From NCBI GenBank assembly GCA_964430735.1, contig CAYSFB010000003.1:2039-66038 (forward strand): a stretch of DNA of 64,000 bases, given 5' to 3'. A program made the translations under genes and the position numbers. Below are positions 36,319 to 60,029 of the stretch, piece after piece. The notes under the pieces are model-generated. The model made no database searches and was not told the origin of the DNA. It saw only the letters and a list, made by a program, of their open reading frames with translations. The stretch is from an uncultured Planctomycetia bacterium (lineage in GTDB: Bacteria; Omnitrophota; Gorgyraeia; 2-02-FULL-51-18; JAGOUK01). Each line of letters starts with the position of its first letter. The first letter of the stretch is position 1.

Positions 36319-37420
36319 CGCACGGCAAGAAGTGGAACGACTGCTCGACAAGGCCGAATCCGGCCAGCGGATCACGACGGCGGAAGGGGAGCTCCTCTTC
36401 ACCGAAGCCAATCTTTTTGAGCTCGGCGCCGTCGCCGAGCGCCTGAAGCACCGGCGCGTTCCGGGTTCCGACAAGCAGGCGACTTTCGTCGTCGACCGGA
36501 ACATTAACTACACGAATTACTGCAACTCGCTCTGCAAGTTCTGCGCCTTCTACCGCATCCCCGGCGACACCAAAGAGGGCTATGTCCGCGGCATCGACGA
36601 AATCTTCCAGAAGATCGACGAACTCGTCGCCATCGGCGGCACCCAGGTCCTCATGCAGGGCGGCCACAACCCCGACCTCGGAATCGAGTACTACGAGGAC
36701 CTGATCTCGAAGGTGCATGCGAAGTTTCCGCAGGTGATCATCCACTCGCTGTCGGCCTCGGAGATCTGCCACATCGCCAAGACCTCCAACATCAGCCGCA
36801 AGGAAGCGCTCGAGCGCGTCCGCGCAGCCGGCATGGAATCGCTCCCCGGCGGGGGTGCCGAGATTCTCGTCGACCGCGTCCGCAACCGCATCAGCCCCTT
36901 GAAGACGAAGACCGCCGACTGGGTCGACGTCCACCGCACGGCCCACCAGCTCGGCATGAAGGGCACCGCCACGATGGTCTACGGCTTCGACGAAACGATC
37001 GCCGAGCGCATGGAGCACTTCGAAGTGGTCCGCAAGCTCCAGGACGAAACGGGCGGCTTCCGCGCCTTCATCCCCTGGAGCTTCATCTCCGAATCCACGG
37101 AAATGGACCTCCCGCACCGCACCGGTGACGAATACCTCCGTATGCTCGCTATCAGCCGCATCATGCTCGATAACATCCAGCATCTCCAGGCAGGTTTTGT
37201 GACCGAAGGGGAAAAGCTCGCCCAAGCCGCCCTGAGCTTCGGCGCGGACGACTTCGGCGGGATCCTCATGGAGGAGAACGTGGTGACCGCGACGGGATTG
37301 GAGTTTAAGGGATTCCCGAAAGAAGAGGCGGTTAGGCAGATTCGGGAGGCGGGTAAGATACCTATACAACGTAATACTAGATACGAGTTAGTGCAAGCAT
37401 TTCTCGATTTACTCAATTAA
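36311..37420 (+). CDS. Radical SAM menaquinone biosynthesis enzyme, MqnC/MqnE family (3' end AT-rich and chimeric)
   Basis: CNSLCKFCAF cluster; paralog of the gene at 34333. Its last ~22 codons (37355-37420) have island-like low GC. Confidence 0.75.
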   Translation: MVNARQEVERLLDKAESGQRITTAEGELLFTEANLFELGAVAERLKHRRVPGSDKQATFVVDRNINYTNYCNSLCKFCAFYRIPGDTKEGYVRGIDEIFQKIDELVAIGGTQVLMQGGHNPDLGIEYYEDLISKVHAKFPQVIIHSLSASEICHIAKTSNISRKEALERVRAAGMESLPGGGAEILVDRVRNRISPLKTKTADWVDVHRTAHQLGMKGTATMVYGFDETIAERMEHFEVVRKLQDETGGFRAFIPWSFISESTEMDLPHRTGDEYLRMLAISRIMLDNIQHLQAGFVTEGEKLAQAALSFGADDFGGILMEENVVTATGLEFKGFPKEEAVRQIREAGKIPIQRNTRYELVQAFLDLLN

Positions 37421-37422
37421 TT

Positions 37423-39420
37423 ATGAAAATGTTGAATGATGATGTTCGTCCGGGTTTTCATCGAGCGTTCAACTCGGTTGATTATACGGAGAGCGAACAA
37501 CTAATCTTACGTAAATTATCCCAAGAATGGTACATAACGAAATCAGGCACTCCGATTAACTTGGGAGCCTCCAGTTACAGATATTTCTTTATGAAGCCCA
37601 CGGCGATTTTTTCTGAGATGTTCAATATTGATAGAGAAATCGTCTGCATTTTCAGCCCATACACTCATTTTGAACCAAGAACATTAGACGCCTTTGATGA
37701 AGCGGTAGCGAAATCCCCTCAATTACGGTTAGAAAGCGTATGCCGCGTTTTAATAAGTGCAACTGAGAGCATTGAACAAAAAATTGAAGACTTGATCAAA
37801 TCCGATCCTGAGCAGCCTGTTGTAATTCCTTTCTCATACAAAGAATTGTTGGATACTAAAGACCCTTACTTTATCCGCAATCGATTTCGCAGACACTTTT
37901 ACTCAAGAGATTTGTTTGCTTTTTCTTCACCCCTCAAGAAAGATTTGTACTTTTTTGGGCGCAACCCACTCGTCCATGATCTTGTTAACAGACACAGATC
38001 TGGCGAGCATGCCGGATTGTTCGGTCTCCGTAAGAGTGGTAAAACTTCTATCATCTACGCAATCGAGCGATTGATGAGCGCAAATGATGAAGTGTATGTG
38101 TCGATCGATTGCGAGAGCCCGTCCATTCACAGGCTTCGCTGGTATGAGTTGCTGCATAAAATCGTTGCTAAGTATCACGCTACTAGAGATTCAAAAATAA
38201 GCTTGCGGCCTATGCAAGAATATACAGAGAAAATGGCTGCCGAGTTATTTGAATCCGAGATATTAGCTATTTACGGGTCAAAAAAGCGCAAAAGATCTCT
38301 ATTTGTTTTTGATGAAATAGAGCACATATCACCCGACACAGGCTCTTCAGAACATTGGAAATCAAATGAAGATTTTGTGCTTTTTTGGCAATCCATGCGA
38401 GCATTTCATCAGCGCCATAGTGAAGTTATGACTTATATGCTCGTTGGCACCAATCCGTCAGCAGTTGAACGGGCGAAGTTATGTGGAGGGGATAATCCGT
38501 TATTTGGTTCCATTCCTGTCCAGTATGTGCCGAGTTTTACCTATGAGCAAGTGCGCGAAATGGTTAGAAAACTTGGTAGGTATATGGGGATAAAGTTTGA
38601 TGAGATGGTATTTGCCAAAATTGCCGAAGAATGGGGTGGTCACCCTTTTTTGATCAGGCAATTTTGTAGCAAGATTAATAGTGCATGCACAGGGGATCGG
38701 CCGATAAACGTTGATAGGGCCATGTATGAATCGGTAAAGAGATCATTCGCTGAATCAGCCGATGATTATCTAGAGTCTATCGTCCAAGTCTTACACGATT
38801 GGTATCGGGATGAATATGACATGTTGATGTTTTTGGCGATGAATGATCACGAGACATTCAAGAAATTCGCCACAGACCACAATCTCTACACGCGCCATTT
38901 GTTGGGATATGGACTTATACAGCAAAGTGAACACGGCTTCACTTTTATAATTAGCTCGCTTCGAGAGCATCTCGCCAAAAAGCATAAATTCAAAAAATTA
39001 AACATGACTACTCAAGAAATGGTCGATGAATGCTCTGCTCGTCGAAATCAGCTTGAAAAGTCCTTAAGATTGCTTACGAAAAGACTAATGAAGTTGGAGT
39101 ATGGAGATAAAGCGGTCGAGGTGCTGTTGGGAGCAATCCCAGGCGAAAGAAGAGAAAAAATGCGTGGTATGACTATAGAGCAATTAACGAACTCAGATTC
39201 TTGTCCTCTATATTTTTCAGATTTGACCGCCCTACTTAAGAGGGAGTGGAAAATATTTGGAAAAATCTTCTCATTCGATTGTGAAAGAATGTCAGTCATG
39301 ATGGCTGATATAAATCGATATGCTAGACCTGACGCGCATGCAAAGAACATAAAAAAGGAAGATTTTGATCTGGTGCGTAATTATTTTGAGCGGATTGAAA
39401 AAGCCATATCCGATTGGTAG
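37423..39420 (+). CDS. Island-encoded P-loop AAA+/STAND-type NTPase with a C-terminal R-x6-H (HEPN-like) motif; candidate defense protein
   Basis: Low-GC codon usage. FFGRNPLVHDLVNRHRSGEHAGLFGLRKSGKTS (Walker A, nt ~38023-38049), LFVFDEIEH (Walker B, ~38299-38325), C-terminal RYARPDAHAK (~39316-39345). Resembles the Orc1/archaeal-ATPase (PF01637-like) signature. Confidence 0.6.
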   Translation: MKMLNDDVRPGFHRAFNSVDYTESEQLILRKLSQEWYITKSGTPINLGASSYRYFFMKPTAIFSEMFNIDREIVCIFSPYTHFEPRTLDAFDEAVAKSPQLRLESVCRVLISATESIEQKIEDLIKSDPEQPVVIPFSYKELLDTKDPYFIRNRFRRHFYSRDLFAFSSPLKKDLYFFGRNPLVHDLVNRHRSGEHAGLFGLRKSGKTSIIYAIERLMSANDEVYVSIDCESPSIHRLRWYELLHKIVAKYHATRDSKISLRPMQEYTEKMAAELFESEILAIYGSKKRKRSLFVFDEIEHISPDTGSSEHWKSNEDFVLFWQSMRAFHQRHSEVMTYMLVGTNPSAVERAKLCGGDNPLFGSIPVQYVPSFTYEQVREMVRKLGRYMGIKFDEMVFAKIAEEWGGHPFLIRQFCSKINSACTGDRPINVDRAMYESVKRSFAESADDYLESIVQVLHDWYRDEYDMLMFLAMNDHETFKKFATDHNLYTRHLLGYGLIQQSEHGFTFIISSLREHLAKKHKFKKLNMTTQEMVDECSARRNQLEKSLRLLTKRLMKLEYGDKAVEVLLGAIPGERREKMRGMTIEQLTNSDSCPLYFSDLTALLKREWKIFGKIFSFDCERMSVMMADINRYARPDAHAKNIKKEDFDLVRNYFERIEKAISDW

Positions 39421-39435
39421 TTTTTTGAAAGAAAA

Positions 39436-40101
39436 GTGAAAGAATTAATATTTGGACCTGGAGGTTTGATTTTATTGGGCGCTTTGCTGAGCGCGAGCGG
39501 CGCGCTTTGGGCTGGTCATCGGCAGCAAATATTCGATAGTGATATTCACTTAAAAAATCAGCAGCTTTTGTCAAAAAGTGACGAGATAGCACGAATGCAA
39601 GAGACCATTCGGCTCTCTGTAACGGGATCGGGTTACTGTTTCATTGCCCTCACAAATCTCAATCGTACCACCAATGAACAGAATGTAATGCTTATGAATC
39701 CCGGCGGGTACCCTCTTTATGATGTCGGAATTCGCGTAGTTGATTTGAAGAAGTGGGAAGATTTGGCAAAGGGCGGATCTATTAATTACGAGTCAATGAG
39801 AGCTGCCGAAACAATTTATCAATTTGGTGAATTAGGTCCGGAAAGAGTTTTGGATATAGGCAAATGGGATTTGGGGGATTCTGATGCGAGAGATTTTAAT
39901 ATTTTTATATCAAGTCGGAGCGGTTTTATATCGGAGCGTCTCCGGCTCAGAAGGGTCGAAGGCGAATGGGTTGCGGCCACTCAAGTCGTTAAGGGTAATA
40001 CGACAATTAAAGATAACGTGATTCAATTGGAGGGCGAAATTTTACACGAGACTATTCATGACAAATTCCCTCGAAATGCATCTGGCGTGGTTGATTGGTA
40101 A
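39436..40101 (+). CDS. Island-encoded hypothetical protein with an N-terminal transmembrane anchor
   Basis: GTG start; LIFGPGGLILLGALLSASGALWAG helix, then a ~190-aa soluble domain with no recognisable motif; same low GC as the ATPase gene. Confidence 0.5.
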   Translation: MKELIFGPGGLILLGALLSASGALWAGHRQQIFDSDIHLKNQQLLSKSDEIARMQETIRLSVTGSGYCFIALTNLNRTTNEQNVMLMNPGGYPLYDVGIRVVDLKKWEDLAKGGSINYESMRAAETIYQFGELGPERVLDIGKWDLGDSDARDFNIFISSRSGFISERLRLRRVEGEWVAATQVVKGNTTIKDNVIQLEGEILHETIHDKFPRNASGVVDW

Positions 40102-40107
40102 GCATAT

Positions 40108-40989
40108 ATGGATAGCAGGATTTTGCAAGAATGTACTGATTTGGCTTTTAAAGGAAAGATTACTTTTCCCGAAGTCGTGCGGCGTATGGCCGATACTGGC
40201 GTGGAACGGTACTGCGCGGACCTGGTCACTTTTCAAAAAATCATTTATGCAGCTGATGGGCAGAATCACACCGTTGCGCTACCGCTGACGAACCCACCCG
40301 CAATCGCCCAGGAATTCTCGGCCGCCGGCGTGATCGAAGCCATCCGGACCATCCAAAAGGGTGGGATCGACTACCCGGAATTCCTGAGGCGTATCATGAA
40401 ATCAGGAACCGTCTTTTATGACGTGTTCATCCGCGGGGGGAAGACCATTTATGTGGGGCGGAACGGGGATTTTCACGTGGAAACTTTTCCAATATCCAAG
40501 GAGGGCAATATCATGGCAAACGCAATTCCTAATGGGTATCGTTCCGTGACTCCGAGCATGACGTTCAAAGACACTCAGAAGGCGCTCGACTTCTACAAAA
40601 AAGCGTTCGGCGCGAAAGTGATGGACCTGTTTCCGAGCCCGGCCGGCAAGGGCATCATGCACGCGACGATGCAGATTGGCGACTCGATCGTCATGATGGG
40701 CGACGAGATGCCGACCTGCAAGAGCGCGGAGACGATGGGCGGTTCGCCCATGGGGCTTTTCATCTACGTGCCGAATGTGGACGAGGTGTTCCAGCAGGCG
40801 GTGGCGGCGGGAGCCAAGGTGACGATGCCGGTGGCGGAGATGTTCTGGGGCGACCGCTGCGGGAACGTCAAAGACCCGTTCGGCTACGACTGGATGATCG
40901 CCACGCACACCAAGGACCTTTCCAAGGAAGAGATCCGCAAGGGTGGCGAGGCGTTTTTCGCTCAGATGGCCAACCAGAGCAAGTCGTAA
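40108..40989 (+). CDS. DUF1398 (YbcV-like) fused in frame to a VOC/glyoxalase (PhnB-like) domain
   Basis: N-terminal 135 aa match DUF1398 (...PEFLRRIMKSGTVFYDVFIRGG...). An internal AAGGAGG Shine-Dalgarno plus ATG at 40513 begins a complete PhnB-like VOC domain with no intervening stop. Confidence 0.6.
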   Translation: MDSRILQECTDLAFKGKITFPEVVRRMADTGVERYCADLVTFQKIIYAADGQNHTVALPLTNPPAIAQEFSAAGVIEAIRTIQKGGIDYPEFLRRIMKSGTVFYDVFIRGGKTIYVGRNGDFHVETFPISKEGNIMANAIPNGYRSVTPSMTFKDTQKALDFYKKAFGAKVMDLFPSPAGKGIMHATMQIGDSIVMMGDEMPTCKSAETMGGSPMGLFIYVPNVDEVFQQAVAAGAKVTMPVAEMFWGDRCGNVKDPFGYDWMIATHTKDLSKEEIRKGGEAFFAQMANQSKS

Positions 40990-59951: not shown

Positions 59952-60029
59952 CGGAATGTGGCTCAACTTGGCTAGAGCGCTCGGTTCGGGACCGAGAGGT
60001 TCCGGGTTCGAATCCCGGCATTCCGACCA
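59952..60029 (+). tRNA. tRNA-Pro (anticodon CGG)
   Basis: Manual fold gives acceptor CGGAATG/CATTCCG, D-stem GCTC/GAGC, anticodon loop TTCGGGA, T-arm CCGGG-TTCGAAT-CCCGG, and a genomically encoded CCA. Confidence 0.85.

Follow-up and report, generated by a model that had tools for sequence, protein, structure and literature searches.

A low-G+C island downstream of mqnC carrying a candidate single-protein NTPase-HEPN defence gene in an uncultured Planctomycetia bacterium

We analysed a stretch of 64,000 nucleotides (hereafter the window) from contig CAYSFB010000003.1 of an uncultured Planctomycetia bacterium, in which two adjacent genes, here called gene A and gene B, formed a short island of low G+C content directly behind the menaquinone gene mqnC. 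We considered it somewhat probable that gene A, a candidate anti-phage or anti-mobile-element gene, encoded an NTP-switched HEPN RNase with such a function, acting roughly by the mechanism proposed below. Gene A belonged to a widespread, highly conserved and uncharacterised family of stand-alone single genes, and several independent contexts of its homologues pointed to biological conflict or defence. The island itself was horizontally acquired DNA that was foreign to the host genome and lacked mobility genes, and the two genes stacked together in it were unrelated cargo with independent distributions. The island, the domain folds and motifs, the spread of the family, the absence of linkage between genes A and B and the hotspot contexts were all computed here; the coordinates of the individual features are given in Table 1.

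Domain organisation and family of gene A

The AlphaFold2 model of the gene A protein, which was built from a 49-sequence alignment, had a mean predicted local distance difference test score of 86.9. Its topology ran from a P-loop ATPase through a lid that bore a GxP-type motif to a winged helix, in agreement with the Foldseek matches in the PDB. Namely, the matches of the whole model were dominated by the ATPase module and included 2qen, Cdc6/ORC, NRC3, RFC, RuvB, TnsC and Avs4, with the alignments to 2qen and Cdc6 spanning ~380-430 columns. The Walker A (GLRKSGKTS), Walker B (LFVFDEIE) and lid (GGHPFLIRQ) motifs were invariant in the family, and so were the lid residues G405, G406, H407, F409, L410 and R412. 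Thus, the Walker motifs and the fold matches bore out the preliminary description, made from the letters of the window, of the 665-residue product as a STAND/AAA+-type P-loop NTPase. Among sequence profiles, the ATPase matched AAA_22, AAA_14, nSTAND1, AAA_16 and nSTAND6 of Pfam, all below threshold. The scores were 18.7 bits for nSTAND1 (E 1.4e-3, cut-off 27.1) and 18.6 bits for nSTAND6 (E 2e-3, cut-off 27.7), and generic AAA profiles scored gene A similarly to these two.

The C-terminal domain was matched by the HEPN_Swt1 profile (PF18731) over profile positions 5-115 of 115, with an E-value of 6.3e-5 and 23.7 bits against a cut-off of 27.5. The same profile matched 16 of 30 family members at E <= 0.01 (best E 6.8e-6), all of the scores lying just under the Pfam gathering cut-off. 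Residues 530-664 were all-helical in the model. The histidine of the putative catalytic motif, H639, was invariant in the family and R635 was nearly so, the variants of the motif being RPDAH, RNDAH and RKDAH. Additionally, the first helix of the domain had a conserved RRNxxE.

At the other end of the protein, the N-terminal domain of the model was predicted to have the alpha-beta-beta-beta-alpha-beta core of PD-(D/E)xK nucleases. Its structural neighbours were FokI, LlaBIII, Can2, Rpb5, R.BspD6I, NucS, EcoT38I, Card1, AspBHI, HindIII, Cap4, HamA and McrC, and Foldseek agreed weakly with these nuclease-fold neighbours. Residues E25 and K58 were conserved at plausible catalytic positions, and the other invariant charged residues of the domain were E65, R71, E72, R86, R102, E104 and E130. 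The canonical D...(D/E)xK triad could not be placed on the alignment, where no conserved acidic pair fell on the predicted beta2 and beta3 strands, and because of this the N-terminal domain may act as a sensor and not as a nuclease. Sequence searches of the PDB with the two proteins of the island, the N-terminal domain and the HEPN profile returned nothing significant. Together, the HEPN and nuclease-fold domains predicted from the model would make gene A a self-contained multi-domain protein; neither domain had been seen in the preliminary description.

Gene A had 1929 homologues, nearly all of them 660-670 amino acids long, which aligned with it end to end at 52-58% identity. The mean column identity of the family alignment was 63%, with the two Walker motifs, GGHPF and H639 invariant. 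Relatives were confirmed at no fewer than 151 places in 185,579 species-representative genomes and in more than 15 phyla, a count that is a lower bound as the scan used short peptide patterns. The gene was thus rare; in Escherichia coli it was present in 7 of the 5426 complete genomes, and it had no match in the deposited phage genomes of INPHARED. A copy on a Ralstonia megaplasmid appeared to be unannotated or degraded.

A distant clade from Actinobacteria matched gene A over residues 67-506 only; its proteins lacked the HEPN part and had an N-terminal IF2_N domain. The actinobacterial ATPase gene was always followed by an overlapping gene (stop/start) for a protein of ~370 amino acids (373 aa), which ended in PIRNRLAH and therefore carried a classic Rx4H motif. 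This protein aligned co-linearly with the HEPN profile of gene A, with a weak hhalign E-value of 0.029, and 2 of 10 such proteins matched HEPN_Swt1 weakly. Next came a PIN_12 gene, and the order of the three genes was conserved in 13 loci. One example of the three-gene arrangement was found in Microbacterium hominis (L077:9362-13506), and others were on the contigs L078-L090. Judged from sequence, the split arrangement looked like a fusion/fission pair that would tie the ATPase functionally to a HEPN effector, with weak statistics.

Genomic contexts of the homologues and of the island

The location of gene A homologues in other genomes was informative. In E. coli KL53, a P4-like satellite inserted at tRNA-Sec (L149:7823-12101) had a homologue and no other gene between int and psu, and the same satellite was present in two IMG/VR contigs (L153 and L154). 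The int-psu slot of P4 satellites is a defence hotspot with validated systems (Rousset et al. 2022, PMC9122126), and this homologue, WP_021563882, is listed simply as 'AAA_35' in Table S1 of that study. The protein was ~35% identical to gene A over 97% of its length, and the two belonged to separate clades of the family. In the searched text of PMC9122126 there was no sign that WP_021563882 had been tested or named, and a literature search for 'AAA_35' gave only noise. The copies of E. coli KL53 and of a Klebsiella plasmid shared ~94% DNA identity. Just upstream of the plasmid copy (L142:6678-8977) there was a 93-residue remnant of the same P4-type integrase, and the retention of this remnant suggests that the plasmid copy was derived from a satellite.

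Other homologues had neighbours of a similar kind. In E. coli MB06234, another homologue abutted a prophage integrase. The hsdM and hsdS genes of type I restriction-modification systems stood beside homologues in two lineages (L007-9/L014 and L016), with hsdM either upstream or downstream, and in Competibacter a Mrr_cat gene preceded the homologue and a Fic gene followed it. Toxin-antitoxin pairs, AbiEii and integrases were also found near some homologues, and others were on conjugative Klebsiella plasmids. On a Ketobacteraceae chromosome (OZ244969; L002/L018:7048-11169), the homologue was bracketed by near-identical copies of an IS3-family insertion sequence (HTH_Tnp_1 and rve). These copies had the same orientation, a third one lay further downstream, and the arrangement resembled a composite transposon.

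The mqnC locus itself was compared with that of a sister strain known from two metagenome contigs, L093 and L094. There, MqnC was 92% identical in protein and the DNA was ~85% identical up to position 37387 of the window. Directly after its mqnC, the sister strain had another gene (L094:1199-2467, Ga0209573_1028624; L093:2960-3160, Ga0058869_1510419), which was also low in G+C (0.30-0.45) and encoded a 422-residue AAA_15/AAA_21 ATPase. This ATPase matched NsnB (Menshen) of PADLOC at E 2e-50, and PDC-M55A and AriA as well; the contig stopped before any possible partner genes of the NsnB-like ATPase. No empty site at the 3' end of mqnC was found in relatives, and those with MqnC at 65-69% identity lost synteny after the gene. 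Thus, since the sister strain carried a different low-G+C NsnB-like gene directly after mqnC, the 3' end of mqnC was a strain-variable slot for defence-type cargo, a conclusion that for this lineage is based on a single sister lineage (92% MqnC). The P4 hotspot, the prophage, the restriction-modification neighbours and this sister slot all favoured the defence-type cargo that the preliminary description had expected in the island.

The foreign character of the island was evident from its composition. G+C was 0.412 over positions 37355-40180, and all other segments of equal length in the window had a mean of 0.610 (standard deviation 0.020, minimum 0.547). This corresponded to a z of ~ -9.9 against the remaining segments, and the island was the sole stretch of the 64 kb with less than 0.50 G+C. 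The preliminary description had put the drop at ~40% against ~65%; the drop held (0.412, z ~ -10), and the background had to be lowered to ~60%. Its bounds (37355-40180) were roughly right, and we refined those of the low-G+C tract to 37343-40185 (2.8 kb, 41% G+C), so that the edges reached into the end of mqnC (37343) and the start of the DUF1398-VOC gene (40185). The G+C content at third codon positions was 0.42 in gene A and 0.405 in gene B versus 0.74-0.87 in the neighbouring genes, which confirmed the switch to A/T-ending codons described before. A listing of open reading frames likewise returned exactly two in the tract, both on the + strand and separated by 15 nucleotides, as had been described.

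The deviant composition extended into both flanking genes. The left junction had a G+C content of 0.40, and of 0.35 at third codon positions, versus 0.615 and 0.85 in the body of mqnC. The MqnC tail encoded there had the same amino acid sequence as in the sister strain, and the DNA diverged from ~37354. At the right junction the two values were 0.41 and 0.385 versus 0.57 and 0.76 in the remainder of the DUF1398-VOC gene. The Pfam match to DUF1398 started at residue 5 of this reading frame, i.e., inside the A/T-rich junction, and public gene calls placed the start at 40186, 26 codons later. Both flanking gene ends were A/T-rich yet encoded the expected MqnC tail and DUF1398 start, as if they had arrived together with the island. 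The position of the junction in the sister strain differed from that in the window.

Gene A started with an ATG located 2 nucleotides downstream of the mqnC stop codon (window positions 37418-37425, TAATTATG), and no promoter-like site was found in a scan upstream of it. Accordingly, gene A may be transcribed together with the menaquinone operon or be coupled to it in translation. The genes upstream of the island were ubiE/ubiD/ubiA-like genes, mqnE, mqnA and mqnC, and those downstream were the DUF1398-VOC gene, SUI1, rplM, rpsI and argC. There was no integrase or transposase within ~10 kb of the island, where the genes were menaquinone, ribosomal and arginine genes. No tRNA was near it either, the single tRNA of the window being at 59952, 20 kb off. 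Searches for flanking direct or inverted repeats and att-like duplications gave short chance matches only. Gene content, tRNA and repeat searches were therefore in line with the earlier statement that no integrase, transposase, tRNA or inverted repeat was adjacent. In the downstream DUF1398-VOC gene (40108-40989), DUF1398 was fused to a glyoxalase/VOC (YjdN-like) domain, and the DUF1398 domain appeared to be internally duplicated, with both halves matching the same part of the profile.

Table 1. Features of the low-G+C tract and its junctions (window coordinates)
Feature	Position	Strand	Description
Left junction	37343..37420	+	Last 26 mqnC codons, A/T-ending codon usage
Gene A	37423..39420	+	665 aa, ATG start; single-polypeptide candidate defence protein
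Gene A, residues 1-165	37423..37917	+	N-terminal alpha/beta domain, predicted restriction-endonuclease-like (PD-(D/E)xK) fold
Gene A, residues ~175-345	37945..38457	+	P-loop ATPase core; Walker A 38023-38049, Walker B 38299-38322
Gene A, residues ~346-520	38458..38982	+	Helical lid with GGHPFLIRQ (GxP-like) motif, then winged-helix region
Gene A, residues 530-665	39010..39417	+	C-terminal all-helical Swt1-like HEPN domain (predicted)
Gene A, R635-P-D-A-H639	39325-39339	+	Putative catalytic motif of the HEPN domain; checked by translation
Gene B	39436..40101	+	221 aa from GTG; predicted single-pass membrane protein, uncharacterised family
Right junction	40108..40185	+	First 26 codons of the DUF1398-VOC fusion reading frame, A/T-rich

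Proposed mechanism and alternative readings

For gene A, we infer a defence function, an RNase activity, activation through oligomerisation and the nature of the trigger as follows. An infection cue would be sensed via the N-terminal domain, the winged helix or both, where the N-terminal domain might be a nucleic-acid sensor or a second nuclease. The STAND/ORC-like ATPase with its lid and winged helix would be an NTP-dependent switch leading to nucleotide-dependent oligomerisation, and this could pair two HEPN domains into a composite active site. It is established that the active site of HEPN RNases forms across the dimer interface (PMC3710099), with DARNA and DS-11 as examples. The paired HEPN domains would then cut RNA (tRNA, rRNA or mRNA), and the cleavage would cause growth arrest and so limit the spread of the phage. 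A bolder version of this proposal, which we offer tentatively as possible rather than probable, is that the family represents a new class of compact single-chain immune receptor without a repeat sensor. In such a receptor, a degenerate nuclease fold would be the sensor, the ATPase would oligomerise and the Rx3H HEPN domain would cleave RNA, with the ATPase/HEPN/PIN arrangement of Actinobacteria as the split version.

A number of observations weighed against an immune HEPN RNase. The spacing of the HEPN motif was Rx3H (RxDAH), and the canonical one is Rx4-6H. Every Pfam match of gene A was below the gathering threshold, and the link to the fission variant was statistically weak. Moreover, the protein lacked a repeat-type sensor (TPR, WD40 or LRR-like), as only residues 530-665 were left after the winged helix. 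Defence or mobile genes were only a minority of the 120 immediate neighbours of gene A homologues (~31 independent loci), and many copies were solitary, surrounded by housekeeping genes (e.g., polA, gyrA and gatB). Because so many of the immediate neighbours were housekeeping genes, the classical enrichment in defence islands was weak for this family.

We weighed two other functions of the protein. One is that gene A encodes a DNA-targeting enzyme of the restriction type, in which the ATPase would power the N-terminal PD-(D/E)xK fold as effector, in the manner of McrBC or type IV enzymes, and the HEPN domain would be non-catalytic, either regulatory or RNA-binding. This reading draws on the restriction and defence DNases among the best structural neighbours of the N-terminal domain (FokI, LlaBIII, Can2, Card1, Cap4, HamA and McrC), on its seven invariant charged residues from E65 to E130 listed above, on the non-canonical spacing of the HEPN motif and on the type I restriction-modification genes that adjoin some homologues. 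We nevertheless regard it as unlikely, given the lack of a canonical triad on the predicted strands. In addition, the invariant H639, the nearly invariant R635 and the conserved RRNxxE helix indicated that the HEPN site was under selection, and the split version from Actinobacteria retained a classic RNRLAH. About as improbable, in our view, is a non-immune function, either in the service of the carrier elements (addiction or stability, competition between elements, or a DNA transaction of the ORC/TnsC kind) or as a stress-response RNase. Such a function would fit the Cdc6/ORC and TnsC proteins among the structural neighbours, the homologues carried by conjugative plasmids, satellites and prophages or flanked by insertion sequence copies, and the many copies that lie amid housekeeping genes without other defence genes. 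On the other hand, no transposase, replication or partition gene was consistently linked to the family, and the window copy and many others had no surrounding mobile element. Moreover, gene A occupied slots known or shown to hold defence cargo, and a protein that unites a nuclease fold, a switch ATPase and a HEPN domain has the typical make-up of a conflict system (PMC3710099). Thus, an NTP-switched HEPN RNase with a defence function remained the reading that we preferred.

Another alternative concerned the two genes of the island, which the preliminary description had regarded as one two-gene module. If this were the case, genes A and B would be parts of a single defence system, in which the NTPase is the sensor and the membrane protein the effector. 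The genes were only 15 nucleotides apart on the same strand and shared the same deviant composition, two further sequencing runs on this organism showed the same arrangement, and gene B had a membrane anchor. Indeed, the N-terminal hydrophobic segment of gene B was conserved across its family, so that the description of a 221-residue protein with an N-terminal membrane anchor was upheld; public gene callers started the gene at a later TTG, giving 208 amino acids. However, the preliminary description had itself named the neighbourhood of both genes elsewhere as a check and a lack of conserved linkage as a refutation, and by this standard the pair was refuted. No relative of gene B was detected by tblastn in ~85 other gene A loci, which were drawn from species-representative genomes and encoding contigs, and a profile hidden Markov model of 141 gene B family proteins had no match among the gene A loci other than the window and the two assemblies that duplicate it. 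In an all-against-all comparison of the flanking reading frames, the full-length gene A clade had no conserved neighbour at all. Conversely, gene B was solitary in five loci of its family and 0 of the 5 had a gene A relative. The contexts of these loci differed from each other, the gene lying next to coaX, amid housekeeping genes and long intergenic gaps, in an integrase/MNT-HepT island, adjacent to fusA or after purine genes. Gene A also had candidate effector domains of its own. We therefore consider a joint system very improbable. Because gene B was absent from the other gene A loci and gene A from the gene B loci, the island was composed of two independent cargo genes, and gene B was not a partner of gene A. 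The locus thus shows that tight spacing within an island alone is no proof of one system.

Gene B had no match in Pfam, NCBIfam, PADLOC or PHROGs. It was not an orphan, as a word-indexed search with only 2 matches might have implied, since an exhaustive HMMER search gave 997 cluster representatives, and the E-value was <= 1e-10 for 360 of these. The proteins of this family were mostly 200-250 amino acids long and shared the N-terminal hydrophobic helix and conserved motifs. A partial gene upstream of the only close homologue of gene B was considered as a gene A relative and rejected, because it encoded a type III pantothenate kinase. Several giant proteins of 2,400-6,600 amino acids (P0124, P0125, P0156, P0175, P0183 and P0260) matched residues ~9-90 of gene B in 11-23 stretches each, a region consisting of the membrane helix and a coiled-coil-like segment. 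These may be repeat proteins of a related unit or a composition artefact.

Should a defence role of gene A be confirmed, it would represent a widespread single-gene system missed by the PADLOC 2023 models, spread over more than 15 phyla with ~1900 protein clusters and carried also by Klebsiella plasmids, P4-like satellites of E. coli and prophages. In that case, how a STAND-like switch recognises infection without a repeat sensor would become a tractable question. The natural homologues in E. coli make the family directly testable. The locus would also be a clean example of a defence hotspot that is devoid of mobility genes and located where a housekeeping operon ends. Gene A can thus be considered a good testable candidate, yet one of many untested hotspot cargos.

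Relation of gene A to known systems

Gene A was recognised by none of PADLOC (2023), NCBIfam and PHROGs. In PADLOC-DB 2.0 (2023), its only match was PDC-S01 (E 6.7e-4), which covered the P-loop only and fell short of a system call. Thus, the earlier statement that it corresponds to no named system stood in the PADLOC 2023 search. In the searched literature there was no named or tested member of the family beyond the 'AAA_35' hotspot entry, and neither the DefensePredictor text nor the 2026 STAND survey contained a matching system. Identity with DARNA was rejected, as DARNA has an N-terminal HEPN domain, a Pds5-like C-terminal domain and no ATPase.

Gene A resembled STAND proteins of the Avs type and NTPase-HEPN nucleases like PrrC, and was a member of neither group. 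Similar to the Avs/AVAST proteins (Avs4, PDB 8dgf), it had in a single chain an N-terminal nuclease fold followed by a P-loop switch ATPase, a lid and a winged helix. The patchy, horizontally driven spread and the presence in P4 hotspots and prophages were also alike, and Avs4 and the plant NLR NRC3 were among its Foldseek matches. However, gene A lacked the C-terminal repeat (TPR-like) sensor and had a predicted HEPN domain of 135 residues in its place. Moreover, its length was 665 amino acids versus 1000-2000, its matches to nSTAND1 and nSTAND6 were below threshold, and its best structural matches were the archaeal PAB2304 and Cdc6 rather than an Avs protein.

The likeness to PrrC and RloC lay in the order of an NTPase and a C-terminal HEPN-type RNase (predicted for gene A) in one chain. 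Adjacency to type I restriction-modification genes is the classical context of PrrC (PMC3710099), and some gene A homologues adjoined hsdM and hsdS. In contrast to the ABC/Rad50-like NTPase of PrrC and RloC, that of gene A was AAA+/STAND-like by profile and fold. Additionally, gene A had an extra N-terminal domain with a predicted nuclease fold, there was no sequence match between them, and most copies, including that of the window, had no restriction-modification neighbour.

The Swt1-like HEPN subfamily predicted for gene A was also joined to an AAA+ ATPase in Ava_2192, where a Swt1/Abi2-family HEPN domain is fused to a DUF499 ATPase in restriction-modification operons with an inferred role in conflict (Anantharaman et al. 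2013, PMC3710099). In that protein, however, the order was reversed, with the HEPN domain at the N-terminus, and its DUF499 ATPase had no match in gene A. Moreover, Ava_2192 was bound to an operon with helicase and methylase genes, whereas gene A stood alone. Finally, the best match to the ATPase, lid and winged helix of gene A was PAB2304 (PDB 2qen, Pfam ATPase_2; Foldseek E 9e-9, TM-score 0.66 on the target), which differed from gene A in having neither the N-terminal nuclease-fold domain nor the HEPN domain.

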